A DNA stretch of 60,345 nucleotides, counting the filler, from Fonticula-like sp. SCN 57-25 (taxonomy: Eukaryota): the NCBI GenBank assembly GCA_001724245.1. It is 3 parts of 3 records of this genome, joined end to end, with 100 filler letters (N's around TTAATTAATTAA, not from the genome) between each part and the next. Parts side by side here need not be neighbours in the genome. Positions count along the whole stretch, not along the records: positions 1 to 22,815 come from MEDX01000179.1; 2 more parts are not named here. One strand, given 5' to 3'. The notes under the pieces are model-generated. The model saw only the letters and a program-made list of their open reading frames with translations. It was not told where the DNA came from and made no database searches. Position 1 is the stretch's first letter; each line of letters starts with the position of its first letter. A program made the translations under genes and the position numbers. Of the stretch, positions 3-14,893 are shown piece by piece.

Positions 3-191
3 ACGCTGCACGGGTTGCGAAGTTCATTTCGAGATTGGGCCGGCGACGAAACACAGCATCCGAGAGAGGTTGCCGAGCAAGCCTTGGCGCACGTTGTGCA
101 GGGTGTTGAGGCTGCCTACAGGAGAAAAGACGCCCTCGCAAAGAGACGATCGCTCATGAATGACTGGGCGGCCTTCTGCTCCCCGGAGTAG
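3..191 (+). CDS. int: Tyrosine integrase, P4-like family (3' end only, truncated by window start)
   Basis: Frame 3 translates TLHGLRSSFRDWAGDETQHPREVAEQALAHVVQGVEAAYRRKDALAKRRSLMNDWAAFC*, containing the HxxR box, the LAH His and the catalytic Tyr (AAY) of tyrosine recombinases. Not in the ORF track. Confidence 0.93.
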   Translation, partial: TLHGLRSSFRDWAGDETQHPREVAEQALAHVVQGVEAAYRRKDALAKRRSLMNDWAAFCSPE

Positions 192-286
192 CGAGTTTTT
201 TATTCATAACCCGCAGAACGCATATTTACGCATGTAGGTGTATCGCGGTTCGCTTGTTGCCTTCACTGATTTTGGAGGCAGAAACC

Positions 287-502
287 GTGAATGCATCGAA
301 CGATAACTTCCGCCCTGCGCTGATCTCCCTCAACGAGATTTGCGCCACCCTGACTGTCAGTCGCACCGCGGTAAACATCCTGCGTGCAGCTGGAGACTTC
401 CCGCAGCCGGTAGAGCTCGGCGAGCGACGTATAGCCTTCGTCCGCGACGAGTTCGACGCTTGGCTGCAGGCCCGTATCAAGGCAAGGGCGAAGGCCGCCT
501 AG
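287..502 (+). CDS. alpA: AlpA-family phage regulator/excisionase
   Basis: ISLNEICATLTVSRTAVNILRAAGDFPQPVELGERRIAFVRDEFDAWL is the AlpA wHTH pattern; GGAGG RBS before GTG 287; directly after the integrase. Confidence 0.88.
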   Translation: MNASNDNFRPALISLNEICATLTVSRTAVNILRAAGDFPQPVELGERRIAFVRDEFDAWLQARIKARAKAA

Positions 503-537
503 CCCCCCCTACCCCATCATCCCACAAGGAGTCCGCG

Positions 538-801
538 ATGCGGATCGTAAGAATTGATCCGGTGGTCGATCCGTCGACCGCCGGCGGCGTTGTCGCGCAC
601 GTCGACGCTCAGATCGGCGGAGTCCGGCTGAAACGCATGATCCTCAAGCGCAATATGTCGGGCGAGTACCGAATATACCCGCCCAAGATGCGGGGTCTGT
701 GCGTTGCAGACATCGACAAAGGACTTGCGGCGCACATCACTGACGCCGCGGTGCGAGCTCTTACCGGAGGGCGATTTGCCCATGGCGTCGACCACGACTG
801 A
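538..801 (+). CDS. Small hypothetical phage protein, possibly SpoVG/ssDNA-binding-like
   Basis: AAGGAG RBS before ATG 538; beta-rich N-terminus then a helix; overlaps the rep start. Confidence 0.55.
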   Translation: MRIVRIDPVVDPSTAGGVVAHVDAQIGGVRLKRMILKRNMSGEYRIYPPKMRGLCVADIDKGLAAHITDAAVRALTGGRFAHGVDHD

Positions 802-1915
802 GAAGCAGCCTAAGTCAGCGCCTGGCGATCCGGTACCGCAGCTGAACTTGTTGGTTATGGCGACAGTCGACGATCGGCTTAGCCGAGGCGACTTAGGAAT
901 CCTCGGTCGCCTCATCAAGCGTTTCAAGAAGTCGAAGGGAAATGCCTGGGCGACGCACGAACTGCTCGCCGAGCAAGCGCATCTCAGTGATCGGCAGGTC
1001 ATTCGGTCGCTGCAGCGCCTCACAGCGCTCGGTTACGTCCAAGTTCTCAGCAAGGGTGTTCGCGGCCGCGGTAGTGTGTACCTCCCCTCTTTCCACCTAG
1101 TTTTAGGTGACATTGGTGTCACGGAAACGACCCAGAATATGGGTGACATCGCGGTCACCCCATCAGTCACTTTCCCTGACATCGAAGGCACCGATTCAGC
1201 CAAAAGGGATGACATGGGCGTCACCCCCACTCACTTACGTCTCGCACCTACAGGTGCGCAGACGTTGAGTGAGTCTCCCTTGGAGTCCCCCACGTCTGCA
1301 CCACCCCACGCCCCTGCCGGGGCGGAGGTGGATGCCGTGGGGTTTGATAGGGTTTGGGAGGCGTATGGCGTTCGAACAAAGAGGGCGCAGGCCAAAGCCA
1401 CCTTCGCCGGCCTGAGTGACGTAGCCAATATCCTTGGCGAGATCGTCGCTGCAGCGACCCGCTGGCACGAGCACTACGAAGCGCAGGGAACGCCCGCCAG
1501 GTACCGAAAGCAGTTGCACACGTGGTTGAAGGGGGAATGCTACCTGGAGGACCCGCCGTCCTGGAAAGCACCCCTATCCGCGAAGACCGCGGCGCCGGAG
1601 CCTACCCCTCCACCCAAGGCCGAGGCCGCTCCCCAGCACTGCCGCATTGTATCAGCGACGGTGAGCGACGGCGATGAGGGAAGCGTGCTGAGCCTCACCC
1701 TGCAACCGGTAACCGGCGGCGCACGGATTGTGCGGAACCTGCGGCACCAAACATGGGAAGCGGCAGAAGTTGACGCGCTGCTGTCGGCCACGGGCTTGAA
1801 GGCAGGCGACGACAGCGACGAGCTCGAAGGGCGCGAGGTGCTGGTTGATGGCCGGTGGTATCTGCCAGTGCCGGCCAACGACAACGGCGAGGCGGCAACA
1901 GCCGCCTCTGCCTAG
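782..1915 (+). CDS. Replication initiator-like protein with N-terminal winged HTH
   Basis: AWATHELLAEQAHLSDRQVIRSLQRLTALGYV HTH; central FDRVWEAYG...KAQAKATF...YRKQLHTWL motif typical of phage replisome organisers; internal iterons. Confidence 0.75.
   Translation: MASTTTEKQPKSAPGDPVPQLNLLVMATVDDRLSRGDLGILGRLIKRFKKSKGNAWATHELLAEQAHLSDRQVIRSLQRLTALGYVQVLSKGVRGRGSVYLPSFHLVLGDIGVTETTQNMGDIAVTPSVTFPDIEGTDSAKRDDMGVTPTHLRLAPTGAQTLSESPLESPTSAPPHAPAGAEVDAVGFDRVWEAYGVRTKRAQAKATFAGLSDVANILGEIVAAATRWHEHYEAQGTPARYRKQLHTWLKGECYLEDPPSWKAPLSAKTAAPEPTPPPKAEAAPQHCRIVSATVSDGDEGSVLSLTLQPVTGGARIVRNLRHQTWEAAEVDALLSATGLKAGDDSDELEGREVLVDGRWYLPVPANDNGEAATAASA
1107..1224. repeat. Four palindromic iterons TGACAT-N4-G(T/G)CAC inside rep (putative replication origin)
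   Basis: Copies start at 1108, 1144, 1177 and 1210 (spacing 36, 33, 33 bp). Confidence 0.7.
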
Positions 1916-1919
1916 CCTC

Positions 1920-2345
1920 TTACCGGCCCAGCGTGAGTGTGTTGCCTCGGCCGTATCGCCGGCCGAGATCCATCAGAGTGTTGCCCTGCGGCGCAGCCGG
2001 CCTTGCCATCAAAGCCCGGATAACCGCGGCTTGGCTGCCGAGCTCGTGATATCCTTGGCACTTCGCGAGGAACTGCAGCATAGCTCGCTGCTCGCCGCCG
2101 GATACGCAGTACGTCTTAGCGGCGTGGTCGATTACCACTAGCAGATCATCGTCGAGCAACCCCGCACCTATGCGGAGCTGGTCATGGTTCGACCTGGCGT
2201 CGCCGGGCGCGATGAACACGGCCCCACTGGTCGGCTCATCCCAGATTGACGATGTGATGCGGGAAAGCGTCGACGTAAGGCCGGCCCAGCGATCGGAGTA
2301 GGACGGCAGGTTGTGACCTGTAAGTCTGAACATCAGAGTTTTCAT
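1920..2345 (-). CDS. Hypothetical protein
   Basis: 141-aa ORF filling the gap between rep and the next plus-strand gene, with a LexA box upstream; no family recognised. Confidence 0.55.
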   Translation of the reverse strand: MKTLMFRLTGHNLPSYSDRWAGLTSTLSRITSSIWDEPTSGAVFIAPGDARSNHDQLRIGAGLLDDDLLVVIDHAAKTYCVSGGEQRAMLQFLAKCQGYHELGSQAAVIRALMARPAAPQGNTLMDLGRRYGRGNTLTLGR

Positions 2346-2476
2346 TCGGGTGGTCCTTTCTGGACACGGGACAGCATGAAGGCACGTTTGCGTGCCCGGC
2401 CCTCCCTGGATGAGCGCAAATACCGCGCCTCCGACCGAACGATTCGTACTCTAGCGCATCTTGGCGCCGCTGTCGT

Positions 2477-2491
2477 GTTCCTTGTTCGTTC
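2477..2491. promoter_or_regulatory. Alphaproteobacterial LexA (SOS) box
   Basis: GTTC-CTTGTTC-GTTC matches GTTC-N7-GTTC exactly, in the divergent intergenic region between ORFs 1920-2345 and 2601-3638. Confidence 0.7.
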
Positions 2492-2600
2492 TCCACAAAG
2501 AAGGAGATACGAACAAAATAGCGACGGCAACTGACTTGCCCCATGTAGGTGTATCGGGGTTCGCTTTTCCCCAAGCTGCACCCCAGCCTGGGAAATCACC

Positions 2601-3638
2601 ATGACCGCCAACTTTGCCGCCATCCGAGCCAACGACTTCGGCAACCTCGCCGAACGGCGGGAATGGCTTGCCAGTCTGCCAATTCCCAAGAACGATTCCG
2701 ACATCGATCCAGTGCTCGGTTGCCCGACGTTGGCGAGGCTGACGAACGCTGGCGATACGGCACGCGCGGCGGCATTAGCCACGTGGGTTGCGCGGATGCG
2801 TCCACAACCAATGCCAATGTCGCTGAGCGCGGCAAACGACAACCAGCCGACCTATGATGGCTGGGAGCGGGCGGTGTGGGCCGAGCCAGGTGAACGCAAG
2901 GAAGAGTTTAGTCAGGAGCGCGAGTTCGATATCCGCCCCACCGTCAACGAGCTCGTAGCTGCGACCGGCCGTGTGTCGGTTGTCAAAACGAGACGGGCGA
3001 ACGGGACCTGGAGCGAGCCAGAGCGGCGGGAGACGCAACTGGTTGTCGGAAAACACCGCGGCAGGAGTCGCCGCGCCGTGATGCCGAGCGAAATTGTCGG
3101 ATGGCACGATCGCAACGGCGTAGAACGTCGAGCCCGCGTGGCTCTGGGCTTGCCCAAAGGCGGCGGTAAGAAGCGCAGGGCGACCCAAGACGTCAGTCGG
3201 TACCTGAATCGTCCCGGCACCCCGTTCCCCCCACAGTGGCTTGCGCGTGGCGGGGGGCGCTACTGGGAAAAGACAGCCCAATCCAAATTGGCCCAGATCG
3301 CGCTCAATGAGGCCATCGCCAACACCGAAACCCTGCCGCCGATTACCAGATGCCCGACCGTCATCGCCAAGGGCGCTCACTGGTTAGGTGGTGTGGTCGG
3401 CCGCAGCGGCAAAGCAGGTGGCCGTGATGCGTCCTCGGCGGAGGCACTGATGGCTCGAGCTCACGACGCAGTGCGACTTCGCCGCGATCTTGGCGCCCAA
3501 CGAGCCAAAATCCTTGATCTAGCCACGACCAGAATGTCGGCCAGGCAAATCGGCGTCGAGTTCGGCTACAGCGACAAATATGCCGAACGGTGGGCGGTCG
3601 CAGCGATCAACGAAGCGCTGGATCGGGTCGCCGCGTGA
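2601..3638 (+). CDS. Phage protein with C-terminal HTH, possible late-gene regulator
   Basis: C-terminal AKILDLATTRMSARQIGVEFGYSDKYAERW resembles a sigma region-4/LuxR HTH; precedes the packaging genes. Confidence 0.6.
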   Translation: MTANFAAIRANDFGNLAERREWLASLPIPKNDSDIDPVLGCPTLARLTNAGDTARAAALATWVARMRPQPMPMSLSAANDNQPTYDGWERAVWAEPGERKEEFSQEREFDIRPTVNELVAATGRVSVVKTRRANGTWSEPERRETQLVVGKHRGRSRRAVMPSEIVGWHDRNGVERRARVALGLPKGGGKKRRATQDVSRYLNRPGTPFPPQWLARGGGRYWEKTAQSKLAQIALNEAIANTETLPPITRCPTVIAKGAHWLGGVVGRSGKAGGRDASSAEALMARAHDAVRLRRDLGAQRAKILDLATTRMSARQIGVEFGYSDKYAERWAVAAINEALDRVAA

Positions 3639-3755
3639 TCTTTGTACCCCTCAGGGGGTGGTGGCAGCGTAGTCAATTGAGAGGGGTGCTCCGCAGCGGC
3701 ACCATTCTCCCGCTCGTTTGGCAAAGGCGAGCGTAGCCGCACTCGACGCCTGCTC

Positions 3756-4295
3756 GTGCGTTGGGTGCGGCTTTTCTCATCCCTTAGTTCGCGATTTTCG
3801 CAAACCGCCGGAAGGCGGCAGCGGCGTGTAGCGCACGGCCATAGTGGTGGCGGCCGCCATGCGTTCCGCCGCGACCCATTCGAGGAAGCAGGCGACCGGT
3901 GTTCGCGTGGGTCGCGTTACGCATGCGGCCAGACAAACTTTCAGCAGGCTGGCGTGCTGCCGGTGGCTATCGGCGCAACGCGTTACCGACTCCGACCTTC
4001 GCAACTGGCAAGGTTGGTTGTGGCATCGGTGCTCGATGTGCCGCTTCGAACGGTCGCCGATGCAGCGCTCGAGGTGTGCCAGTTGCCGGATGCAGCGGGC
4101 AGAACATTCGGCGACGCACTAGCCGCGGCACTGGACCACCGGCAACACGCCCCACTGACCGTCGATCTGGACCGCCGCTTCGCGACTTTCGGCGACGCGG
4201 TGTTCGGCAAGGTTCCGGCTTCAACCTCGATCTGTCGCCGCTGCCAGATCCCCACCGAGGTCACGCGAGAAGTTATCCGGCGGCTAGACCGCTGA
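3756..4295 (+). CDS. Hypothetical protein (start uncertain, probably further downstream)
   Basis: Longest plus-strand ORF in the gap, ending 19 bp before the next gene; the C-terminal two-thirds looks protein-like. Confidence 0.4.
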   Translation: MRWVRLFSSLSSRFSQTAGRRQRRVAHGHSGGGRHAFRRDPFEEAGDRCSRGSRYACGQTNFQQAGVLPVAIGATRYRLRPSQLARLVVASVLDVPLRTVADAALEVCQLPDAAGRTFGDALAAALDHRQHAPLTVDLDRRFATFGDAVFGKVPASTSICRRCQIPTEVTREVIRRLDR

Positions 4296-4314
4296 AAATC
4301 CAAAGGACTGAAAA

Positions 4315-4917
4315 TTGAAATTCCCGCACCCCCGTGAGTTCGCCCCCGAGCTCGATGAACTATGCGCCAAGGAAGCCGAACTCTCTGAGCAAGCTGCGCC
4401 ACGGCGCGCCGATCGCCTGACGCTTATTTCCAAGCTGCGCGATCGCGACCCGGCCGAAGAAGTTCCGCCGCCCAACCCGCAGACCGTGCGTGTCGCCGGA
4501 CTCTTAGGGCGCGATGCGCCGGCGGGGACGGCGTCGACACGGGAACGCCTCAACCAGGTGGAACGCGAGCTGGCCGACATCGACGCGGCCCTGTCGTTGC
4601 TTGGTAGGGATATTGCCGCGGCGCACAGAACCGCCTCGGTGAAGGCGCGCGCGCAAGCGGATGGCGAATATCGCAAACGGGTTGCGGCCGTAGCCACGGC
4701 GCTGACCGCGGCGCACGACGCCAACCACGCGTTGCGGGCGTTCGTTGAGGGATTCGAGGACGCTGGATTCAGCTCCTCCGGCTGGTCGCAGTTGTTCCCC
4801 GGCCTACTGGGCGGGCACACCGATCCAAATTCGCCGCTCGCCTACTACCTTCGCGAGTGCGTTGAGGCCGGCGTGATCGCCGCGGGCGATATTCCCCCGG
4901 AGCTGCGTCATGCGTAG
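4315..4917 (+). CDS. Hypothetical coiled-coil protein
   Basis: AAGGA RBS, TTG start, helical heptad character, overlaps the protease start. Confidence 0.6.
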   Translation: MKFPHPREFAPELDELCAKEAELSEQAAPRRADRLTLISKLRDRDPAEEVPPPNPQTVRVAGLLGRDAPAGTASTRERLNQVERELADIDAALSLLGRDIAAAHRTASVKARAQADGEYRKRVAAVATALTAAHDANHALRAFVEGFEDAGFSSSGWSQLFPGLLGGHTDPNSPLAYYLRECVEAGVIAAGDIPPELRHA

Positions 4918-5638
4918 GTCCGAACCGATTGCCACGTTGAGCGGCCAGGCCATTGTCGCGCCGCGCGCCGTGGCAGCATGGCGAGCTCGGTGCGAGCGCA
5001 TTGCGGGGCGAGACGATCGAGCAAAGCGAACCGCGCCAACCGCTACGACTCCTGCATCATCGCAGATGACCGAACCAGGTCTGCAGGGCTATGCGTGTGT
5101 GTACGGGCGCCCGTTCATCAAGGCCGGCAAGATCATGATGTTCGAAGCGGGCTGCTTTGCCGGCTCAGTGTACATCGGCCCCTCCAAGTCTGTGCTGTTC
5201 GATCATGATGATCGGGATGTCATAGGCACGACAGCGGACGGGCTGGAGTTCGCCGGTGCCAACGACGGGTTGGTCTATCGACTCCCACTGAAGGGCAACC
5301 GACGCGCTGCCGAGGTTGAGCGCGGCATCCGGTCCGGCGAGAAGGGCTGCGCCTCTGTGGGCTGTGAAATACACGAGGCGCAGCAGATGGAGTCGGCCGG
5401 CGTGCCGTACACGCTGATCACCAAGGCGACTCTCTACGAGGTATCGCTTGTACCGCAAGGCGCTGTATCCGGAACTTCTGCGAGTATCGTCGACCTGGCA
5501 GACGAGCCGCGAGACCTGCGCTCCGCTGCGCGCAGTGCCAGCTTCAAGCTGGATCAGATCGCCTCCAACACGGCCACCAGCGGCCGCCGGTTGATGGACC
5601 GACTCGAGCGGCTCGACAGGTTGCTGCGGCAGGCGTGA
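4910..5638 (+). CDS. HK97-family prohead protease (peptidase S78-like)
   Basis: LQGYACVYG, FEAGCF, LFDHD (His), GCASVG (Ser) and LYEVSLVPQGA motifs. Confidence 0.85.
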   Translation: MRRSEPIATLSGQAIVAPRAVAAWRARCERIAGRDDRAKRTAPTATTPASSQMTEPGLQGYACVYGRPFIKAGKIMMFEAGCFAGSVYIGPSKSVLFDHDDRDVIGTTADGLEFAGANDGLVYRLPLKGNRRAAEVERGIRSGEKGCASVGCEIHEAQQMESAGVPYTLITKATLYEVSLVPQGAVSGTSASIVDLADEPRDLRSAARSASFKLDQIASNTATSGRRLMDRLERLDRLLRQA

Positions 5639-5639
5639 C

Positions 5640-5720
5640 TTGCATAGGGGGGTATGCAAATCCCTAGAACCCTGTCCACCCCCGACCGCGCCCGGCCATT
5701 CGTGCGCATTTTTCCAATTC
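5640..5720 (+). other. Putative cos/packaging site upstream of terS
   Basis: TTGCATA-GGGGGG-TATGCAA palindrome, then AAATCCCT...GACCGCGCCC...CGTGCGCATTTTTCC, the layout seen just upstream of small-terminase genes of HK97-like cos phages (recognised by eye). Confidence 0.5.
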
Positions 5721-5738
5721 AAAACCCAGGGGTGGATC

Positions 5739-6083
5739 TTGCCACGTCCTAAGACGCCATATGCGAAGGCATTCGCCCTGGGAGCGGTCGAAAAGCACCG
5801 AGAGCGCTACAAACCGCTGCCACCTACGAACCTTCCGAACCTCGGGCCCTTGGGCGATCCGCCGGAATGGCTGAAGCCAGGGCAACTCGAGTTCTGGAAC
5901 GAGATCGCGGCGGATATCCCGTGGCTGACATTCTCGCATCGCGGCATCGCCGCCATCGCCTCGATTGCCGCTGACAAGTGGCGCGCCAGCGAGGGGACAA
6001 ACATTAAGGCGGGGAACCTACTCCGCCTTTGTCTTCAATCGATGGGCGCAACGCCAGCCACCGAGCACTTTGCCGGCAGGTAA
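5739..6083 (+). CDS. terS: Terminase small subunit-like protein (P27 family)
   Basis: MPRPKTP...LGDPPEWL...FWNEI...IPWLT...LQSMGATPA pattern; TTG start after GGGGTGG. Confidence 0.7.
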   Translation: MPRPKTPYAKAFALGAVEKHRERYKPLPPTNLPNLGPLGDPPEWLKPGQLEFWNEIAADIPWLTFSHRGIAAIASIAADKWRASEGTNIKAGNLLRLCLQSMGATPATEHFAGR

Positions 6084-6107
6084 GCCCCGACAACAAGGAG
6101 GCCACCC

Positions 6108-6470
6108 TTGGCCGATTTTCCAGTCCCGATCCCAACTGGAGCGGGCAATCTTCGCTATCGACTCGCGTTCGACCAGCGCATCCAGCAGGACGATGGGTTT
6201 GGGAACATCGTCGGCGACTGGCAGGAACAGTTCATTACTGCGGCTGGCATGATCCCAATGACCGGCGGCGAAGCGGCGCGCGCATCCCGTCTCGAAGGGA
6301 TTCAGCCGTACACCGTCAGTATCCGCAACAACCCGCAGACCGCGAGGATCACGCCCGATTGGCGATGCCGTGACCTACGCACCGGACAGGAGTTCGCGAT
6401 CCGCACCGTGGTGACGCGCCCGACCCGATCATATCGGGACCTGGTTGTCGTGCAGGGTGAGGCTGCTTAG
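6108..6470 (+). CDS. Phage head-closure/head-tail adaptor (SPP1 gp16-like)
   Basis: AGNLRYRLAF...DDGFGN..GDW...GGEAARASRLEG...ITPDWR motifs; AAGGAGG RBS. Confidence 0.85.
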   Translation: MADFPVPIPTGAGNLRYRLAFDQRIQQDDGFGNIVGDWQEQFITAAGMIPMTGGEAARASRLEGIQPYTVSIRNNPQTARITPDWRCRDLRTGQEFAIRTVVTRPTRSYRDLVVVQGEAA

Positions 6471-6493
6471 GCCAATTGAGGGCGAGCGGAAAG

Positions 6494-6815
6494 AAAGTGC
6501 AGGCTTCTGTTGCCAGGTGCCTGCGAACCCCGCCTGTCGGACTGCTAGGCCCGGAGGACTTCTAGTTCAGGTGCCAGCGCCGCATTAAGCAGCGAGAGCA
6601 ACCTTAGCATAGTTGTTGTTGGCAACTATCAGGATGGCCCGATATCGGTGGTACCATGCCGGGCAAAAGTCTAACCTTTAAGCCCCTGTCGATCCTGTTT
6701 CATCCCCATGCAACCCCGCCAACAACGGGGCCAAGTGTGGTGGAGACGCCGGGCACTGCCCCCGGGTCCAATGGGTTTATTACGCAAGCCGTTTATCGCC
6801 ATAGCCGTTACCGGC
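6494..6815 (-). ncRNA. ssrA: Two-piece (circularly permuted) alphaproteobacterial tmRNA gene
   Basis: Minus strand: acceptor piece ends GACCCGGGGGCAGTGCCCGGCGTCTCCACCA (CCA at 6738); 30-nt intervening segment; coding piece starts GGGGATGAAACAGGATCGAC (6707); acceptor stem has G3-U70; ATAGTT precedes the resume codon; tag frame 6623-6585 reads ANNNYAKVALAA*. Outer ends approximate. Confidence 0.95.
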
Positions 6816-6821
6816 GCATGT

Positions 6822-6851
6822 AGTATAGGTCTGCGCCGTGGCTAATGTAAA
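6822..6851 (-). promoter_or_regulatory. Sigma70-type promoter of the tmRNA gene
   Basis: Minus strand TTTACA/TTACAT, 17-18 nt spacer, TATACT, about 7 nt before the acceptor piece. Confidence 0.65.
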
Positions 6852-6964
6852 TGCGATGCGCTATTAGGCAGGGGAAACGGTCTATGAACACTCGATGGAG
6901 GCTTGGCCTTGCGCGCGGGTTAAGGTTTGCGTTACAGGCGTGGCTGAAATGTCGCATGAGCCTA

Positions 6965-6992
6965 TTGCAATGTGTTTAGCTATAACTTAACT
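6965..6992 (+). promoter_or_regulatory. Putative TA promoter with imperfect palindromic operator
   Basis: TTGCAA at 6965; GTTTAGCTATAACTTAAC (6974-6991) is a 14/18 palindrome directly upstream of the toxin start. Confidence 0.45.
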
Positions 6993-7002
6993 CCTAGGAC
7001 GC

Positions 7003-7407
7003 ATGATGAGCCGATCTGGCGCGCCACAAAAGGTTGCGACTGACCGTGAACGCGTAGCCACCGATGGCTACGCGGACGTTTGGCTAATTGGCGAAGCACT
7101 AACCGCGTGGAAAGCCCTGTGCAGCAGGAAAGACGAGAACAGCCGCCGGGCCGCGCAGCGCATCGGACGGTATTTCCCGCGCTTCGCCCAGCACGGGGAA
7201 TCGGCGTTTACCGACGAGATGTTCAAGCGCGGGAACGAGCACATGATTTACGAGTTCAAGGCTCATCAGTTCCGCCTCTACGGTGTCATTCGCACCTATG
7301 AGGGGAAGCGGAGTTTTGTCGGGACGGCCTGCGATCCGGCCAAGAAGAACAATAAAGCCGATCCCGCAATACTAAGAAGAGCCGCGGATGCGGCCGACAA
7401 AATTTGA
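7003..7407 (+). CDS. higB: RelE/HigB-like toxin of a toxin-antitoxin-chaperone system
   Basis: IYEFKAHQFRLYG...F...KK motif of RelE/Gp49-type RNases; toxin-first order; TGATG coupling to the HTH gene. Confidence 0.72.
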   Translation: MMSRSGAPQKVATDRERVATDGYADVWLIGEALTAWKALCSRKDENSRRAAQRIGRYFPRFAQHGESAFTDEMFKRGNEHMIYEFKAHQFRLYGVIRTYEGKRSFVGTACDPAKKNNKADPAILRRAADAADKI

Positions 7408-7835
7408 TGGAGAGTGGAATGGCTGCGAAGAAAAACCATGACTGGGTCGCAATCGAGGAGAATGCGCTTCTGGATTTTCAGTTCGCCGTGATTGACGCGA
7501 TGGCGGCCGCCGGCGTTACGAAGGCTGAACTCGCGGACAGGTTGGGAGTGTCGCGTGCTCGTGTGTCTCAGATGCTCGATTCTGAGGCAAACCCGACTAT
7601 CCGAGTAATCGCCAGGGCGATGGCCGTGCTGGGTCGCGAAGTCAAGTTTGACGTGTGTGACGCAAGCACCGAAGCGGTGGATGTGGCTGACGAACAGGTT
7701 GAGGACAACCTTGAAGTCGAAGAGACCTTCACCTTTTTGCGCGCTGCAGACTCTGGTTGGGAAGTTCAGCAGCGACGGAGTGCCCCTGCGAATGAGAACC
7801 GATACGCCCGATATGCCGGAAAGGTTGCCGCCTGA
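7407..7835 (+). CDS. higA: HigA-like Xre-HTH antitoxin with C-terminal chaperone-addiction-like extension
   Basis: GVTKAELADRLGVSRARVSQMLDSEANPTIRVIARAMAVLG HTH; about 60-aa acidic/aromatic tail ending PANENRYARYAGKVAA. Confidence 0.8.
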   Translation: MESGMAAKKNHDWVAIEENALLDFQFAVIDAMAAAGVTKAELADRLGVSRARVSQMLDSEANPTIRVIARAMAVLGREVKFDVCDASTEAVDVADEQVEDNLEVEETFTFLRAADSGWEVQQRRSAPANENRYARYAGKVAA

Positions 7836-8344
7836 TGTCTAAGGAGATGGTTTCGGTGGATGAGGCGACGGCTACCCCGGCCGCTGATGCCTCGTCTGCC
7901 GAGGCTCTCGAGGCATACAACGCTGTGGTTAGAGATGCTGACTTGCAAGCTGTTCAGCTTCTTGATCTTTCCTTCAATGTCGACCCGGCATTTTTTGGTG
8001 ATCGATCCAAGCGAAAATTCGATCTGAATATCGAGCAAGGCGCGAACGAGTTTGATTCCTCGAAGGGCGCAGCCTTTTCGTTCATCAACATCGTTGTGAG
8101 CGTGAAAAGAGCCAGGAAAAATACCCTGCTGTGCAGAGCGAAGTACGTCGTAGTCTATGAGAACCTGAATGGCTGTGAAGAGGATGCGGTGAAGGCGTTT
8201 CTTGACAGAGTAGCCCCATTCGCTTGCTACCCATATTTTCGATCCGTCTTTGCGACCTTGGATTGGGCGGCGGGGACGATGTTGCCACCACTTCCAATTC
8301 ACAAGGAGAAGTCGCGCGTTGAGAAGGCCGGCTCGCCCTTCTGA
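7835..8344 (+). CDS. SecB-like chaperone (TAC third component)
   Basis: LQAVQLLDLSF beta strand and APFACYPYFRSVFATL...LPPLP C-terminal signature of the SecB fold; TGATG coupling. Confidence 0.8.
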   Translation: MSKEMVSVDEATATPAADASSAEALEAYNAVVRDADLQAVQLLDLSFNVDPAFFGDRSKRKFDLNIEQGANEFDSSKGAAFSFINIVVSVKRARKNTLLCRAKYVVVYENLNGCEEDAVKAFLDRVAPFACYPYFRSVFATLDWAAGTMLPPLPIHKEKSRVEKAGSPF

Positions 8345-8353
8345 AGCCTTGAT

Positions 8354-8376
8354 AGCCGCCTCCGGGCGGCTTTTTC
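8354..8376 (+). terminator. Intrinsic terminator of the TAC operon
   Basis: AGCCGCC-TCCG-GGCGGCT followed by TTTT. Confidence 0.8.
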
Positions 8377-8690
8377 TTATCCGAGCCCCATCAACGCCGC
8401 GAGCAGCGCTCCGACCTTGAACAGGATGCCGCCGAGCAGTTTTGGCACGGCGAAGGCCAGCGCTGTTGCGAGCCACTTCGGCAGCAGTGGCGGTTTAGGG
8501 GTGGTTCTGGGGACACGGCGCTTAGCCAAGGGCGAAGTCCTTCATTGAGAAAAATCTCAATGCGGATCCCGCTTCGCTTTTGTGCGCCAGATTCGGTTGC
8601 CACTGCAAACAGATTAAGGCGCTCGCCCACGCCTTCAATGGTGCGCGCGCGTTCTCCACACCCACCAGCACATTTTTCTTGGAATCCAAA

Positions 8691-9086
8691 ATGCTCCATG
8701 ACTCCGTCTCCGCCCGCTTCGGCGGCCGAGACTTCACGCTCAAAATCAGCCGAGCCGACTTGCCGGCTTTCGAGGCCGCTACCGGCGACTCGGCGTTCGC
8801 AGTGTTGAAGGCAATACACGCCGGCACCTGGACGGTGCGTCAGTTGAAATCCGTCGTTGGCTTCGCCATGGCGGCGCCCGAGCAACTCCGGTTGGCTCGG
8901 GCGATGGCTCGAGCATCCCAGCACGGAATGGCCGGCTTGGAGCCTACCGCGACGCACGTTGAGCGCGTTTTAGCAACTCGCCCGCCGGCGATCTATGCAC
9001 CCCTCGCCGAGGCCATCTTAGGGGCCGCGCTTTTTGGCATCACCGCCGAGGAAGCTACTTTCACGGATGAGCCAGATGGCGCGTGA
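8691..9086 (+). CDS. Tail assembly chaperone, GTA-gp10-like
   Basis: FGGRDFTLKI...FEAATG...GTWTVRQL...LAEAILGAALFG pattern; sits before gp10 and the tape measure. Confidence 0.65.
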   Translation: MLHDSVSARFGGRDFTLKISRADLPAFEAATGDSAFAVLKAIHAGTWTVRQLKSVVGFAMAAPEQLRLARAMARASQHGMAGLEPTATHVERVLATRPPAIYAPLAEAILGAALFGITAEEATFTDEPDGA

Positions 9087-9483
9087 CGCCAGCGTCCGCG
9101 ACTTCGCTCGCCGCCTGGCTCGAGTGCCGGTGTCCATCCGCGCCGCCACAAATAAGGCAATCGCCAAGAATGCGGAAGAATGGGTGCGGGTCTCGCGCGC
9201 CACGGCGCCAAAAGATACCGAGGACGGTACGCCGCTGCATGACAGCATCCGGCGCCACACCACCGAAAGCGGCGGACAGGTTGTGCGTGCCGGCGGACCG
9301 CCCACCACGAAGCCGAGCGCTGGCGGACAGGTCGACTATGCCATTTCCCAGGAGTTTGGCACCGCCGCAATGACGGCTAGCCCATTCTTCTGGCCGGTCT
9401 ATCGATCCTTCAAAAAGCGATGGGCGACCCGGCGCCGCTCCGCAATGAACAAGGCCTTCAAGGAATTCAACAATGGCGGGTGA
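9076..9483 (+). CDS. HK97 gp10-family tail-component protein
   Basis: APKDTEDGTPLHDSI...YAISQEFGTAAMTASPFFWPVY signature. Confidence 0.85.
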   Translation: MARDASVRDFARRLARVPVSIRAATNKAIAKNAEEWVRVSRATAPKDTEDGTPLHDSIRRHTTESGGQVVRAGGPPTTKPSAGGQVDYAISQEFGTAAMTASPFFWPVYRSFKKRWATRRRSAMNKAFKEFNNGG

Positions 9484-10969
9484 ACCGACCCTCTACGCGC
9501 GCATGGAGTTGCGCCTCAACGACTTCGAACGGAAGCTCGCCAGGGCAACGAAGTCCGCAGACGGCGCCATGTCGAAGATCGAGCGCCGTAGCGATCGCAT
9601 GGCGTCGCGGATAGCGAGCGTCGGCGCCGGTGCCTTCAGCGGTCTAGCCAAAGGCGCGGCCGGCGTGCTGCTGCCTCTGCTCACGGCCAGCGCCGCAATT
9701 GATGGCACGAAGGCCGCGCTCGAGGCGTTCGGGGCCGTAGCGGACAATTCGGCCGCAGCAGGACTCGACGCGGAATTTTGGCAGTCTCTGGCGTACCAGG
9801 CGAGCCTGGGTGGCGTGGCGATCGACCAACTATCCGGCGCCTTGTCCACATTCGCCAAGAACAGTGGTCTCGCCGCTGAGGGCAAGGGGAGGATGGTCAC
9901 CAGCCTCAAGGCGCTAGACCCCGTCCTGCTCGAGAACATTCGGAAGGCGACCACACAAGAGGCCCGCATCCGACTTGTGGCCGACGCGCTCGCCAAAGAA
10001 ACCGACGCGAGCCGAAAAGCTGCCATTGCTACTGCGGCGTTCGGCGATGCCGGCCTGAAGCTCGCCAACGTCTTCTCGGGTGGCGCGGCGCAGATTGACG
10101 CTATGGCAGCGAAGGCCCGCGACCTCGGTTTGATCGTCGACCGCGACGTAATCGCCAAGGCCGACGCGATCGGCGACTCGTTCGACACAACGAGTCAGAT
10201 TCTCGACCTGAAGGTCAAAACGGCGCTGGTGAACCTCGGCCCGCTGCTCGTGTGGCTTACCGGCCTAACTGGCGACTTGGCTGCCGCTGCCGGCACCGTG
10301 TTCGACAGCTTCAACGGGATCGGCGATCGAGCCACCAGCACGTTGGAGGCGCAACTTACGGCCCTGCGTGACTCGATGTCGAAGCCGATTGGCTTTGGCG
10401 GCACCCTGCAGGGCATGTTCGACCCGGCCGCGGTTAGGGCCGAAATCGCCAAGATCGAGGCCGAGATATTCCGGCGCGCGGACCAGGGCAGCGTGGTGAA
10501 GCTGAAGGGCATTGCGCCGACAGCGCCCGACCTTCCGACGCTCGATGAAATCGAGACGCGCAACTCCGCCGCAGCCGCGACGCTTCGCCAGGCCGAAGCG
10601 GTCAAGGCGTTGATTGCCGACCTTGAATTCGAGCAGTCGCTACTTGGGAAGTCAGAGACACAGCAGGCTGTGGACACGGCATTACGCCAGGCTGGCGCCG
10701 CAGCAACCGCCGAGCAGCGAGCCAAGATCGAGCAACTGACTGTGGCGATCGCCGAGCAGCGGGCAGAGATCGAGGCCAACCAGCAGGCAATGGCCGAGTT
10801 CGGTGAAATCGCCCGATCGGCGACGCGATCGATGATCGATGACCTTGTAGCCGGGAAAACTGCCGCGGAAGCGTTCGGCAACGTGTTGTCGGACATCGGC
10901 AGCAGACTGGTCGATTTGGGACTTACCGCGCCAGTTGGCGGCGTTTTCACATTGGAGTTGGCTGCGTGA
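9473..10969 (+). CDS. Short tail tape-measure-like protein
   Basis: N-terminal ELRLNDFERKLARA, Ala-rich helical body, KARDLGLIVD motif; 498 aa; follows gp10. Confidence 0.75.
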   Translation: MAGEPTLYARMELRLNDFERKLARATKSADGAMSKIERRSDRMASRIASVGAGAFSGLAKGAAGVLLPLLTASAAIDGTKAALEAFGAVADNSAAAGLDAEFWQSLAYQASLGGVAIDQLSGALSTFAKNSGLAAEGKGRMVTSLKALDPVLLENIRKATTQEARIRLVADALAKETDASRKAAIATAAFGDAGLKLANVFSGGAAQIDAMAAKARDLGLIVDRDVIAKADAIGDSFDTTSQILDLKVKTALVNLGPLLVWLTGLTGDLAAAAGTVFDSFNGIGDRATSTLEAQLTALRDSMSKPIGFGGTLQGMFDPAAVRAEIAKIEAEIFRRADQGSVVKLKGIAPTAPDLPTLDEIETRNSAAAATLRQAEAVKALIADLEFEQSLLGKSETQQAVDTALRQAGAAATAEQRAKIEQLTVAIAEQRAEIEANQQAMAEFGEIARSATRSMIDDLVAGKTAAEAFGNVLSDIGSRLVDLGLTAPVGGVFTLELAA

Positions 10970-11700
10970 CAGCGTTCCTGTCTTTCCCATATCCCGACCG
11001 CATTGAGCTCTTTGCCGACGGCGCGACCTGCCTGCCAAACGGCCTGCTGATTGCCGCTACCGACAAGATCGTCGTTTCGCGCCAAGTGCCATTGGCCGTG
11101 GTCGGGCGCGGCAATCACGGCGACCTGGTGAAGATGACCGATGCGATCCTCAAGCTAACGGCCTGCGGTTCGATCGACGACACGCTCGAGCAACTCGCCG
11201 GCGCTCTTGATGACGTTCGCGTCGATCCGGGCGAGCCGCCTGGTCAGCATTTCGAGCTTGTCATCGCCGCATACTCAGAGACGCACGGTCCGTGCCACTT
11301 CGTGCTGAACAGTTATGGCGGTCCCGAACTACCTGCCTGGACCCTCATCGACCGCTCTGGCGAGATGATCGGCGGCGGCAACGTGCCTAGTCCGGCGGAT
11401 GTCGAGGCGGCTGGGCTGAATGCAGAGACGTTCGCCAACGGCGCCGCGGTGGGCGGGCTGGCGCTGATGGAGATGATGCGCCGGCTGCCAGGCAAGGACG
11501 AAACCCGTGAGGGCGCTACGCACGGCTTCTGGATCGGCTGTCACGTCGACCATGCGGTTATCAGCGCGGCGGGGGTGAGCGTGATCCGGCTTCACACTTG
11601 GCCGGACCAGCTGTTCAAGCCAATCGAGCCCTACCGCGACTTGTCGGCCGGCGATCCCGCTGCCGGTCCCAACGGACCGGTGAGTTCATCGAGCGTGTAA
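10966..11700 (+). CDS. Ntn-hydrolase fold, proteasome-beta/HslV-like protein
   Basis: After Met removal: Thr1, Asp17, Lys33, Gly46/48; later ELVIAAYS..GPCHF and IGCHVDHAVISAAG segments echo beta-subunit strands; GGAG RBS and GTGA overlap with the tape measure. Confidence 0.6.
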   Translation: MTAFLSFPYPDRIELFADGATCLPNGLLIAATDKIVVSRQVPLAVVGRGNHGDLVKMTDAILKLTACGSIDDTLEQLAGALDDVRVDPGEPPGQHFELVIAAYSETHGPCHFVLNSYGGPELPAWTLIDRSGEMIGGGNVPSPADVEAAGLNAETFANGAAVGGLALMEMMRRLPGKDETREGATHGFWIGCHVDHAVISAAGVSVIRLHTWPDQLFKPIEPYRDLSAGDPAAGPNGPVSSSSV

Positions 11701-11843
11701 GCGCGGCCAGACGTGTCGTGGATCATGATCCGCCCAGCGCCGGCACTCTTTAGCTCGTGATACTGCACGACCGCCGCCTCTGGCGTCGCTGCTTCACGTT
11801 GCCATGTCCCGGTCAACATTGAGTAGGTGATGATGAAAGCCAT
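11631..11843 (-). CDS. Small hypothetical protein
   Basis: MAFIITYSMLTGTWQRE...; GGAG upstream of ATG. Confidence 0.5.
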   Translation of the reverse strand: MAFIITYSMLTGTWQREAATPEAAVVQYHELKSAGAGRIMIHDTSGRAYTLDELTGPLGPAAGSPADKSR

Positions 11844-11944
11844 GACCGCTCTTTCTCCGCACGTGGGCAACGTGCGCATGAGAAACGGGCGGTGGCATTC
11901 CCTGAGTTTCACTTATCAGAGTCCGCACACCGGCGGCAACCTGG

Positions 11945-12058
11945 CTAGCCTCTAGGGGTCGCCATAAGCCCCACCAACACGATTCCGGCGGCGATCAGAA
12001 CGACGATCGCCAGCCACGCAACGATCATCCAACCGTACCCGTAACGCCCCCTAAGCAC
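11945..12058 (-). CDS. 37-aa single-pass membrane peptide
   Basis: MLRGRYGYGWMIVAWLAIVVLIAAGIVLVGLMATPRG; GGAGGA RBS at 12063-12068. Confidence 0.5.
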   Translation of the reverse strand: MLRGRYGYGWMIVAWLAIVVLIAAGIVLVGLMATPRG

Positions 12059-12320
12059 GTCGTCCTCCCAAGGGCCGCTGGAGTGAACACTCTGCCCTGG
12101 CCCGACGGGCATCAGGTGCAATCATAGTCTGTCCCGTACACGCTTCAATAGCGGCAACGGCGGCCAACCTCAGGAAACCCCCATGACCACCACGCCGCGC
12201 CCCCAGCGCGAAAACATCAACACGTCCGAAAACCGCAGGCTCATCGCCGCCGACGTCGCTCGCATCGTTGCAGCCGACGAAGCCAAGGCGGCATCGCGCA
12301 TCAAGCCGGAGATCCGCTAA

Positions 12321-14333
12321 TTGCCCCTGCCGACCATTTACAACACCGGCACCGCGTCGGTTGCCAACGGCGCTACGACCATCACTATCGTCGGTGCGGT
12401 GTCCAACGCCATCTATGCCGGCGATTTCTTCATGGACCCGGCGCAGCCGCTCGTGCCGCCGCAGCGCATCGCGTCGGTCACCGGCGGCGGCGTTTACGAG
12501 CTCGCGGTCGGCTGGCCTGGCGCGGCGATGACGTCTGACCCGTACGAGGTGCGGTTCACGCACGATGGTGTTCGCACCTCGGAGCGCACGCGCCAACTCA
12601 TTGAAAAGATGTCCGTCGTCGAGGCTAATGGTCGCGGTCTGTTCTATCTTTTTGCCACGGCGACGTCCGACGCCGACCCCGGCGCCGGCTACCTGCGGCT
12701 CAACAATGCCACGCCGGGCAGCGCAACGGCCGCTTACCTCGACAACTCGGATGCCAACGGCGCACCCGTTCAGACCATCCTCGACACTTGGGACGACAAT
12801 GGCGCCACCGGCGGCCGCGGCCAATTGTGGGTGCGCTCGGTCGCCTCACCGGCCACGTTCCATGCCTACACTGTCACGGGCTCTGTGGTCGACGGCACCG
12901 GCTACCGCAAGCTGACTCTGTCCTATGTCGGCGGCTCCGGCTCGCTCGTGGCGGACGACGAGTTGATGGTTGATTTTGTGTCGGTTGGCCCGGCCGGCGC
13001 GCCTGGCGCAGCTGGCACCAATGGCACCAACGGAACAAATGGCACCAATGGCACCGACGGCAAGTTCAGCGGCACCGAGGTCATCAAGACCGCCGCGTAC
13101 ACTGCGCTCGCGGCCGATGTCGGCAAGACAATCATCCTGAACAAGGCGACGGCAGACACGCTGTCGTTCGCTGCCGCAGCCACCCTTGGCTCAACTTGGA
13201 TGGTGATGGTTAAGAACATCGGCACCGGCACGTGGTCCCTGGATCCGAATGGCGCTGAGACGATCGATGGCCTATCGACCATCTCGCTGGCACAGGGTGA
13301 GAGTATTGTTGTTTCGTCCAACGCGACGGCGTTGCGGAGCTTCTTTCGTGGGTCTGCGGCGTTCACTCAGTTCACGGCGGCGACCTCTTCGTCTCCGGCG
13401 CAACTCGACCTGGCCGAGCAAACGACCAACGGCACTAACAAGGTATCGCTGAAAGCACCGGCCTCGCTGACAGCCGACCGTGTGCAAACTCTGCCGGACG
13501 CGGCTGGAACGTTCATACTGGGGGCGACCGGTGCCATCGACAATCGCTTGCTCCGCAGTGACGGTTCGGGCGGCTCAACGCTTCAGGCCTCTGGCGTAAC
13601 GCTGGCAGACACCGATGACATGACGATACCGGGCGTTTTGGTAGTCGGAGACAACGGCAAATTCTCGTTCTATGATAACGCGACAGATGCGATCTTTCAG
13701 GTCAACGGTGCATCGAGCAATTTCAACATTTATCACTCTGGCCTTGGCGCAACTATACTGAACTATAGCCAAGCAGACAGCCGCTGGACCACGCGCGGTG
13801 AACTTCGCCCTAGTGCGGACAACACATACACCCTTGGTGCATCAGGCGCACGCTGGAGTCAGGTATGGGCGGCGACGGCGACCATCAACACCTCCGATGC
13901 CAGGACTAAGGCGGACATCGAGGACAGTCATCTGGGGCTCGATTTCATTCTGCAGCTACGGCCAGTGAGCTACCGCTTTTGTGTAGGCGGCAACCGCTGG
14001 CAGGACACCGGTGCCACCGAAGAGTATTTGGAGCCGCAACCCGATGGTACTACGGAAGTCAGAACCCGTGCGCTACAGGAACTTGTGCCGGTGCCCGGCC
14101 AGCGGAGACACTTCGGCTTGATCGCTCAGGAGGTCAAGGATGCGTTGGACCTCGCCGAGTGCGCGGATTTTGGCGGATGGGTTCTGACCGATAAAGACGA
14201 TTTGAATAGCGAACAGGGACTTAGATACGAGGAGTTCATCGCGCCGCTGGTCAAAGCAATACAGGAGCAGCAAGAGCAGATCGAATCTTTGCGAGCTGCG
14301 CTTCAAGGGTGGGATGACGTAACGGCGGTCTAA
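12321..14333 (+). CDS. Tail fibre protein with collagen-like repeats and C-terminal intramolecular chaperone (peptidase S74-like)
   Basis: YNTGTASVANG N-terminus; GPAGAPGAA(GTN)4; SDARTK...LRPVSY...GLIAQEV...LRYEEFIAPLVKAIQE. Confidence 0.88.
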   Translation: MPLPTIYNTGTASVANGATTITIVGAVSNAIYAGDFFMDPAQPLVPPQRIASVTGGGVYELAVGWPGAAMTSDPYEVRFTHDGVRTSERTRQLIEKMSVVEANGRGLFYLFATATSDADPGAGYLRLNNATPGSATAAYLDNSDANGAPVQTILDTWDDNGATGGRGQLWVRSVASPATFHAYTVTGSVVDGTGYRKLTLSYVGGSGSLVADDELMVDFVSVGPAGAPGAAGTNGTNGTNGTNGTDGKFSGTEVIKTAAYTALAADVGKTIILNKATADTLSFAAAATLGSTWMVMVKNIGTGTWSLDPNGAETIDGLSTISLAQGESIVVSSNATALRSFFRGSAAFTQFTAATSSSPAQLDLAEQTTNGTNKVSLKAPASLTADRVQTLPDAAGTFILGATGAIDNRLLRSDGSGGSTLQASGVTLADTDDMTIPGVLVVGDNGKFSFYDNATDAIFQVNGASSNFNIYHSGLGATILNYSQADSRWTTRGELRPSADNTYTLGASGARWSQVWAATATINTSDARTKADIEDSHLGLDFILQLRPVSYRFCVGGNRWQDTGATEEYLEPQPDGTTEVRTRALQELVPVPGQRRHFGLIAQEVKDALDLAECADFGGWVLTDKDDLNSEQGLRYEEFIAPLVKAIQEQQEQIESLRAALQGWDDVTAV

Positions 14334-14548
14334 CGCCCCACCGCGCCACATGTGACCGTCCGAATCCTTTTCCCTGGAGGAGCGGCGGACCTGCAGCCGG
14401 CGTCTTGCCCCGGACGTCGGCTGCTTACACCTTTTGGTGAGTGGACCGGCGCTGGCGAATGCCTTTTATTTTCTAGGCCCTAGCCTTCTGCGTCCACACC
14501 GACGGCTGGGGTGGCGGATGCCAAGGCCCCCCGCGGCATCCGCCTCTT

Positions 14549-14563
14549 GTTCTCTTTTCGTTC
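14549..14563. promoter_or_regulatory. Alphaproteobacterial LexA (SOS) box
   Basis: GTTC-TCTTTTC-GTTC overlapping a TTGTTC...TATCCT promoter, about 43 bp upstream of ATG 14606. Confidence 0.75.
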
Positions 14564-14605
14564 ACGGTGCTATCCTCAGGCCCTTCACTGGCAATGGAGG
14601 ACAGA

Positions 14606-14893
14606 ATGTACCGCCAACCCCTCACAACGCCCGGCAAGGCACCGGAACCCAAGGCCCAGAAAACCAAGCTGATCGTGCTGCTCGCGTTCGATCGCGGCGA
14701 AGACGGCGAGTTGCTGCCGTCGTTCGAACCTCGCGAGATGCCGGACGAACGCCGCGCCGTTCAGACAGCCAGGGAGATGGCGACGCGGCATCCGGGTGTC
14801 ATCACCTGGTCGCGTGACGCCGACTTGAAGGCTGGCGAGTTCGGACCACCGGTGGTGCTGTTTCAGGCGGGCGACGTGCCGGAGCTCGAGTGA
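14606..14893 (+). CDS. Hypothetical protein (putatively SOS-regulated)
   Basis: GGAGG RBS; LIVLLAFDRGEDGEL...GVITWSR...GEFGPPVVLF; LexA box upstream. Confidence 0.7.
   Translation: MYRQPLTTPGKAPEPKAQKTKLIVLLAFDRGEDGELLPSFEPREMPDERRAVQTAREMATRHPGVITWSRDADLKAGEFGPPVVLFQAGDVPELE

Follow-up and report, generated by a model that had tools for sequence, protein, structure and literature searches.

The window analysed here, a stretch of 60,345 nucleotides (filler included) from assembly GCA_001724245.1 of Fonticula-like sp. SCN 57-25, very probably carries a mobile prophage-borne cassette, in which a complete and apparently functional extra ssrA gene for transfer-messenger RNA (tmRNA), with its own promoter, is arranged divergently, about 150 nt away, from a toxin-antitoxin-chaperone (TAC) operon, the tmRNA gene being cargo of the element and not the ssrA of the host. 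As the same layout recurs in two other, unrelated DNA contexts, the four-part unit appears to behave as one mobile cassette. In the window it is located in a degraded, rearranged siphovirus-like prophage or island at a tRNA-Ser gene of a Devosia chromosome, and comprises the following features.

6496–6854, minus strand: permuted (two-piece) tmRNA gene including its upstream promoter segment (Rfam RF01849, RF04321 and ARAGORN), with the tag ANNNYAKVALAA
6822–6851, minus strand: sigma-70-like promoter TTTACA-18-TATACT (consensus scan, 10 of 12 positions)
6965–7005, plus strand: conserved block just ahead of the toxin start, putatively a leader, promoter or operator
7003–7407, plus strand: toxin of 134 amino acids with a predicted RelE/HigB-type fold, carrying an 8-residue in-frame deletion after residue 76
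7404–7835, plus strand: antitoxin of 143 amino acids, with an XRE-type helix-turn-helix (HTH) domain (residues ~25–80; Pfam HTH_31 at 5.8e-8 and HTH_3 at 7.8e-7) and a C-terminal extension of ~60 residues
7835–8344, plus strand: SecB-like chaperone of 169 amino acids (Pfam SecB, E 2.6e-5; best PDB match of the model, 5MTW)
8354–8381, plus strand: terminator-like hairpin (8354–8371; 7 pairs, 6 of them GC, loop of 4) and T-run with the tail TTTTTCTTATC (consensus scan)

The complete permuted tmRNA gene with its own promoter that the first-pass annotation had described is recovered by ARAGORN, which places it at 6494–6834 on the minus strand with the tag ANNNYAKVALAA followed by a stop, and by two Rfam models, alpha_tmRNA (RF01849; 274.7 bits at 6496–6854 on the minus strand, E 6.4e-79, gathering score 50), which is matched over its positions 1–355 of 355, and tmRNA_permuted (RF04321; 139.5 bits versus a threshold of 47). 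Two promoter-like sites are seen in the region versus 0.9 expected in shuffles. The similarity with host ssrA genes spans the stretch from 6815, near the +1 position that the promoter-like site predicts, to the mature 3' end; these limits recur in a contig of run X2, one of four sequencing runs whose contigs were compared with positions 1–20000 of the window. In an alignment with nine other genes, the window tmRNA shows the T-arm leading to CCACCA, then the intervening segment, then GGGGAUG, and a G3-U pair is read by eye from this alignment. The last 38 bp of the gene (6498–6535) also occur, with 100% identity, on a Sulfitobacter plasmid, at a place where no gene is annotated, which fits the use of the tmRNA 3' segment by mobile elements as an attachment sequence.

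The operon standing back-to-back with the tmRNA gene, as had been proposed together with its own terminator, consists of three overlapping or abutting open reading frames (ORFs). The toxin has no match in Pfam, NCBIfam, PHROGs or PADLOC, nor in the PDB by sequence. Its family comprises 224 representatives at E<=1e-3, of which 85 members were scanned against Pfam; none of the 85 matches any RelE/HigB-type Pfam family, and the toxin and its 84 relatives give only three matches, all at chance level, to unrelated families and in one member each. The structural model of the toxin (predicted local distance difference test, pLDDT, 84.2; predicted template-modelling score 0.79) retrieves HigB chains of Streptococcus pneumoniae (6AF3 and 6AF4) as the top Foldseek matches, with probability 1.00 and template-modelling (TM) scores of 0.55–0.71. 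All six matches at E<=1e-3 are S. pneumoniae HigB, followed by RelE, YoeB, ParE and HigB1 at probabilities of 0.8–0.98. As fold and domain match and sequence families do not, the operon is assigned as a TAC whose toxin is predicted to adopt the HigB/RelE fold and belongs to an uncurated family; the names HigB and HigA thus rest on fold and domain, not on family membership.

The C-terminal extension of the antitoxin, which contains a W...ANEN motif common to the homologs, may serve as a chaperone-addiction region. When the chaperone and antitoxin residues 84–143 are modelled as a complex, the prediction is rated as weak support, with a score of 0.34 against 0.08 for the best of three controls, and the solved complex 5MTW may be remembered by the predictor. 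Of 78 solved complexes, 51 attain the mark used, as do 2 of 108 mismatched pairs, and scores of at most 0.60 include only five of the 78 solved complexes and all four passing mismatches (of 180); in the chaperone-antitoxin runs at least 60% of the contacts agree, with a partner pLDDT of at least 43. The third protein lies narrowly below the family threshold of Pfam SecB (24.6 bits; cut-off 26), matches NCBIfam SecB models from 5e-5, and has a weak match to PD-T4-9_C of PADLOC (E 0.0088). Its model (pLDDT 81.1) has Rv1957 of Mycobacterium tuberculosis as best PDB match (5MTW; E 3e-8, TM 0.63/0.77), ahead of Escherichia coli SecB.

The linkage of a divergent tmRNA gene with this operon recurs in other elements. 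In contig C241 of genome G131 (locus L125), a tmRNA gene (7013–7347, minus strand) is followed by a toxin (7486–7923), an antitoxin (7907–8341) and a SecB-like gene (8308–8841; all on the plus strand), and by tRNA-Pro (9234–9310, minus strand). By tblastn, the three proteins are 62%, 45% and 70% identical to those of the window, respectively. This cassette follows ORFs resembling a tail fibre and a peptidoglycan hydrolase (named by eye) at the end of a prophage, beside tRNA-Pro, and the same genome also possesses a tmRNA gene of canonical score on contig C60 (285.3 bits versus 257.7 for the cassette copy). The metagenome contig L130 harbours the same four parts in the same layout, with identities of 54%, 42% and 72% to the window proteins; L131 is 100% identical to L130, so the two are counted once. 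Neither the G131 cassette nor that of L130 shares flanks with the canonical ssrA loci or with the window. In all three cassettes aligned, a block of ~40 nt upstream of the toxin start is near-identical, the remaining spacer being not conserved.

Homologs of the window toxin are rare. Ten are present in the database (P0001–P0010), of which P0010 matches the G131 protein of L125. Among 243 Devosiaceae genomes, three have a match at E<=1e-3, which is strong only in G131 (E 1.5e-53) and weak in the two others, one of which (G226) encodes a distant TAC without tmRNA. The toxin profile gives no match in 401 sampled genomes of the order, a set containing no positive control. For the SecB-like protein, no match is found among phages, and the plasmids searched contain three distant Sphingobium matches with other partner genes and without tmRNA. 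A related TAC (49%, 37% and 54% identity), also without tmRNA, is encoded by the IMG/VR contig L133 (5929–8162); this viral contig also bears a gp10-like gene, and its AlpA-like gene resembles window positions 15603–16115.

The tmRNA gene of the window is borne by the element, as was originally suggested, since it shows no host synteny and lies inside an insertion at the 3' end of tRNA-Ser(tga), which forms the right boundary of the inserted element.

17179–17268, minus strand: tRNA-Ser(tga), by ARAGORN; right boundary of the inserted element 1–17178

The bacterium is assigned to Devosia, as the quinone oxidoreductase gene adjoining tRNA-Ser (qor, 17299–18270) has its best loci at 95% and 92% protein identity. 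The DNA similarity with the two closest Devosia loci (L001 and L002) extends from flagellar genes up to tRNA-Ser and stops at 17177–17179, at the 3' end of the tRNA gene; positions 1–17178 are therefore an insertion, which the two closest Devosia do not contain.

The canonical ssrA neighbourhood of Devosia is encountered on neither side of the window tmRNA. Four canonical ssrA loci of 20 kb (L086–L089) are collinear over ~12–15 kb, and the window shares with them only positions 6495–6815. The relatives G002–G005 each have one full-length tmRNA match, in a collinear locus, and the sole match of G001 is a fragment at a contig end. In G002, ssrA lies ~143 kb from qor on the same contig, and no tmRNA gene is found within 10 kb of qor/tRNA-Ser in any of 36 Devosia-group loci, on which ground an ancestral adjacency of ssrA and tRNA-Ser is rejected. 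As judged from these comparisons, the window tmRNA is best regarded as element-borne cargo, neither the host ssrA nor an integration target.

Extra tmRNA genes are scarce in relatives. A tmRNA match is present in 58 of 64 genomes of the genus, three of which have two, and in 144 of 151 genomes of a family sample, the two samples overlapping. After inspection, only G052 and G131 among these genomes possess a full-length tmRNA gene outside the canonical locus. The second tmRNA of G218 belongs to a second canonical-type locus on a short contig, and G027, G051, G080 and G037 have second matches that are partial and come from contig ends; neither case is counted. The extra tmRNA of G052 (L116, contig C19, 9797–10152; 259.8 bits, tag ANDNYARLAVAA) is located 27–30 nt after an ORF of 1023 amino acids resembling a primase/helicase, and groups with the host gene of G052 itself.

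The cassette tmRNAs look functional, as far as can be judged from sequence. All three have the T-arm, the CCA, the 5' acceptor strand and the resume region intact, their tag frames end with LAA and a stop, and their full-length Rfam matches reach 274.7 (window), 257.7 (G131) and 239.9 bits. Of 80 consensus pairs, 72–77 are kept in the cassette tmRNAs and 74–80 in the hosts, from whose genes the consensus was derived; double compensatory changes number three in L125, two in L130 and none in the window copy. The tags of all 34 other family tmRNA genes compared, and that of the extra copy of G052, start with ANDN, and those of the cassettes start with ANNN, ANSN and ANDY. The start of the tag is the binding site of the adaptor SspB in E. 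coli and Caulobacter.

Among themselves the cassette tmRNAs share ~75% identity, and they do not group as a single clade. The window copy falls within a Devosia host group of strong support (100/99) and has 93.7% identity with the gene of G002, which suggests either gene conversion by the resident host ssrA or its re-capture, at a conserved position next to the operon. Compared with the host copy, 25 alignment columns are changed in its intervening segment and tag. The cassette tmRNA of G131 is nearest to the host gene of another genome (78.9%), not to that of G131 itself (73.9%), and a clade of the G131 and L130 copies is not rejected by the approximately unbiased (AU) test (p 0.38). L118 (G051) was left out of the tree, as it has no BLAST match at E<=1e-10.

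How the four parts may work together can be proposed from these features and from known systems. tmRNA rescues ribosomes after RelE cleavage and speeds recovery. Expression of HigB, the toxin of the M. tuberculosis TAC, leads to cleavage of tmRNA inside the tag frame (PMC3912914), and on the ribosome this toxin cleaves A-site codons behind their second base (PMC9098466). Prophage TACs protect E. coli from phages, the chaperone HigC being titrated by the major tail protein of lambda (bioRxiv 10.1101/2024.02.24.581848). By analogy, our working model, which is held tentatively, is that the cassette tmRNA offsets the damage done by the toxin to translation and to tmRNA itself. The toxin would be a ribosome-dependent mRNA endonuclease, released when the antitoxin is lost, for example because the chaperone is titrated by proteins of an invading phage, as in other TAC systems. 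Cleaved messages would leave non-stop ribosomes, which only trans-translation would clear efficiently, and the translated tag frame of tmRNA would itself be a target of such toxins. With the linked gene, the lysogen would gain an extra rescue RNA with an altered tag, so that the toxin would be less costly to carry and the lysogen could recover once it has been activated. Through conversion with, or re-capture of, the resident ssrA, the cassette tmRNA would stay compatible with the SmpB, alanyl-tRNA synthetase and ribosome of the current host. The tmRNA may either buffer a ribosome-dependent RNase or be the protected target of that RNase. Identity of the cassette and working model taken together, this explanation falls just short of an even chance.

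Several observations weigh against it. An adjacent tmRNA gene is absent in six more distant relatives of the operon with upstream DNA visible, namely L132 (toxin 50% identical), L133 (49%), L126 (38%), L261 and L262 (SecB-like protein 28–30%) and the plasmid L258 (32%), L260 being left out of this count as its match touches the contig start. The linkage is thus confined to one small subclade with three independent loci only, all of them Devosiaceae-like, and common descent of a chance neighbourhood could explain it. The AU test rejects a clade of the three cassette tmRNAs (p 0.0005); as these tmRNAs are not one clade, the RNA has not simply been co-inherited with the proteins. The 8-residue deletion in the toxin (window 7228–7231, codon 76/77) occurs in one of 12 aligned sequences, the other 11 homologs all keeping the residues, including one that is 99% identical elsewhere, and it removes an arginine kept in 10 of the 11; the window toxin may therefore be inactive in this strain. 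Nor is there a consistent avoidance of A-ending codons, the preference reported for the M. tuberculosis toxin, by which the tags might have been toxin-resistant: such codons occur neither in the window tag nor in the host tags, and GCA and ACA are present in the G131 and L130 copies. Finally, the left junction, between the head gene and the 3' end of the tmRNA gene, is supported by this assembly alone, and over its last 80 nt the window tmRNA does not differ from a host-type gene. With regard to the toxin allele, a soil-metagenome contig (run X3) matches positions 7100–7228 exactly and then diverges at the deletion point, a hint that an undeleted allele is present in that soil.

As the main alternative, tmRNA and TAC may be independent cargo, acquired once and never separated, the tmRNA aiding translation quality control of phage or lysogen, or phage development, in the way suggested for tmRNAs of other phages, and the TAC being a separate defence or addiction moron; we regard this as unlikely, though well short of negligible. 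Such a pair could originate, for example, if an element excised aberrantly from an ssrA site beside which a toxin-antitoxin module had already landed. Phages do carry tmRNA genes known without a toxin-antitoxin link, as 402 of 18,146 phage genomes contain one and 53 of 133 unique forms are two-piece (PMC9004378). No TAC of this type occurs in 80 IMG/VR loci with an alphaproteobacterial tmRNA T-arm, and the extra tmRNA of G052 is likewise without a TAC. The G131 cassette, moreover, sits at the very end of its prophage by the attachment-side tRNA, where DNA from an aberrant excision would be found. Toxin-antitoxin modules do land beside ssrA, since a vapBC-like pair is located between the canonical ssrA and thyA in contig C18 of G218 (L134, 746–1371), divergent from the tmRNA gene as in the cassette; its antitoxin is of AbrB/MazE type and its toxin PIN-like, both being named by eye from sequence. 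However, tmRNA and TAC have kept their orientation and spacing through three wholly different flanks, and the linkage has outlasted a divergence of the antitoxin to 42–47% and of the tmRNA to ~75% identity. The tmRNA sequence was replaced or converted and its position beside the operon retained, and the two components, both rare in the family, yet coincide.

A further alternative is that the tmRNA gene is kept as a DNA platform, that is, as portable homology or an attachment-like site for recombination with host ssrA or for insertion of islands or satellites. The 38 bp shared with the Sulfitobacter plasmid are in line with this, and recombination with host ssrA seems to happen, as host genes resemble the window only within the exact limits of the gene and the window copy is placed inside the Devosia host clade. 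In G052 as in the window, a gap of 25–30 nt also separates the end of an element gene from the 3' end of the tmRNA. Nevertheless, this role is improbable, as no displaced tmRNA 3' fragment is present in G052, G131 or the window, and an attachment site would not need the promoter, the tRNA-like domain and the tag frame that are intact in all three copies. The integration of an island into the 3' end of a cassette tmRNA gene is dismissed on the same ground, a 23-nt tmRNA 3' pattern having matched only full genes in these three.

The phage surroundings of the cassette in the window are as follows.

6108–6470, plus strand: head completion protein of the left flank (Pfam PF05521 at 7.3e-14), ending 25 nt from the tmRNA 3' end
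8580–9086, plus strand: tail assembly chaperone (Phage_TAC_11) similar to gene transfer agent (GTA) gp10 (Pfam, PHROGs)
9034–9483, plus strand: HK97-gp10-like protein, just below the cut-off (Pfam, PHROGs)
9473–10969, plus strand: tape measure protein (Pfam, PHROGs), the right flank spanning 8580–10969

A tail fibre with an S74 chaperone domain is encoded further right, also on the plus strand. Co-oriented virion genes on both sides of the cassette had been described and are confirmed. The placement inside a morphogenesis module, put forward at the same time, is correct for the window and appears specific to this rearranged remnant, as the cassette of G131 lies at a prophage end. The IMG/VR contig L257 contains homologs from both flanks, namely the head completion protein (41% identical) of the left one, and the gp10-like protein, the tape measure protein and the product of orf10966 of the right one, so both flanks derive from one phage type.

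This finding argues against an assembly mis-join at the tmRNA gene, by which the left junction would have arisen through the tmRNA stretch shared with the host copy, leaving a real cassette that is not truly flanked by head genes. The identity of the last 80 nt would permit such an error; the window in any case combines bacterial with eukaryotic DNA across N runs, and in the run with the best match, among the matches listed, only one short host-type contig (depth 16) covers the variant positions of the tmRNA. On the other hand, the left and right parts and the host flank are each matched by contigs of run X1 that show no differences, at depths of mostly 5.1–5.9, with one of 7.5, and we consider that the chance of a mis-join is small.

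That the window tmRNA is the ordinary host ssrA, used as an integration site with islands on both sides, is very improbable and is rejected on synteny and on the G131 case, as the conserved ssrA neighbourhood is absent from both sides, relatives keep ssrA far from qor/tRNA-Ser, the G131 cassette coexists with a canonical ssrA and the window tag departs from the ANDN start of all 34 other family genes compared, even though ssrA is a classic island target (PMC4383910) and an integrase C-terminus and an AlpA-like gene are present at the start of the window.

The element itself seems to be reduced. No match to capsid, portal, large terminase or major tail families is found among the ORFs scanned in 1–17 kb, and the gene order differs from that of L257, where the gp10-like and head completion genes are followed by ~2 kb of other genes and then by the tape measure gene and the orf10966 homolog; it is therefore interpreted as a degraded, rearranged prophage or a satellite-like island. 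A megablast search with positions 1–17200 gives no match among phages and only the 38-bp tmRNA end among plasmids. The window opens with the last ~60 codons of a tyrosine integrase (3–191), followed by the AlpA-like gene and then a replication initiator. This C-terminus is 68% identical to an integrase that directly follows tRNA-Ser on the same strand in locus L016. In the window, unlike in L016, the integrase end lies 17 kb from tRNA-Ser and on the opposite strand, for which an inversion, tandem elements or a second target outside the window are candidate structures; no displaced tRNA-Ser fragment is found in the window. An exact direct repeat of 17 nt is located at 490–506, at the end of the AlpA-like gene, and at 17090–17106, 73 nt from tRNA-Ser, and a repeat of 25 nt (96% identical) is located at 231–255 and 2542–2566, ahead of two plus-strand genes. 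The Devosia DNA ends at ~22807, where the similarity with L002 stops. It is followed by two runs of 44 N (22816–22859 and 22872–22915), another pair of N runs being located at 47414–47513. The ORFs beyond 22915 are eukaryotic by Pfam (ORC3, Dopey, RasGEF, annexin and Ku80-like), and the window thus probably represents a eukaryote assembly that carries a bacterial contig.

Each component of the cassette has known counterparts. The TAC of M. tuberculosis (HigB1 Rv1955, HigA1 Rv1956 and SecB-like Rv1957) shares with the window operon the order of toxin, antitoxin and chaperone, the RelE/HigB-type toxin fold (7AWK, probability 0.98), the antitoxin HTH with a C-terminal extension, and a chaperone, Rv1957 (5MTW), that is the best match of the window model. 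It differs in having no sequence-level family link to the window toxin and in being chromosomal, with no adjacent tmRNA gene reported in the available sources. The antiphage TACs of E. coli prophages (HigBAC and CmdTAC) likewise are prophage accessory genes, and act in defence with a chaperone that senses a phage structural protein; they belong to other hosts and toxin families, and no tmRNA partner is described in bioRxiv 10.1101/2024.02.24.581848. The tmRNAs of the methylophage Melnitz and of pelagimyophages are similar in that a complete permuted ssrA of alphaproteobacterial type is carried on a phage-derived element. Their carriers, by contrast, are mostly lytic marine phages, no toxin-antitoxin neighbour is reported, and in Melnitz the gene, which carries a glutamine riboswitch, forms one operon with a transcription coactivator situated directly downstream (PMC9004378). 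Islands integrated into ssrA (Islander/TIGER-type, CP4-57) also place a tmRNA gene directly beside integrase-bearing mobile DNA, whereas the window tmRNA is inside the element and off the canonical locus, without a displaced 3' fragment, and the visible boundary is tRNA-Ser. Phage tmRNAs, prophage TACs and ssrA-targeting islands are thus already known, and the conserved tmRNA-TAC cassette appears, as far as the literature searched extends, to be new. No description of the linkage, of which the first-pass annotation knew none either, is found in the articles returned by full-text searches.

RelE/HigB-type ribosome-dependent toxins and trans-translation meet on the ribosome, and to our knowledge they have so far been studied only as separate host functions. 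A natural mobile unit combining a rescue RNA with such a toxin gives a genetic handle on the role of tmRNA in the cost, the reversibility and the defence outcome of the toxin, on why phages carry tmRNA genes at all, and on how a mobile structured RNA gene stays compatible with changing hosts. If the two merely travel together, a prophage-borne two-piece tmRNA is still clearly documented here for soil alphaproteobacteria. A bolder and on balance doubtful proposal is that in this TAC subclade the tmRNA belongs to the system as a genuine fourth part, the element's own RNA with its non-ANDN tag rescuing ribosomes stalled by the HigB-like toxin. If so, the lysogen could recover from an arrest that would otherwise be lethal or static, the fate of tagged products would change, and gene conversion with the resident ssrA would keep the RNA gene suited to each host it enters; the cassette would then be the first toxin-antitoxin system to bring its own ribosome-rescue RNA.

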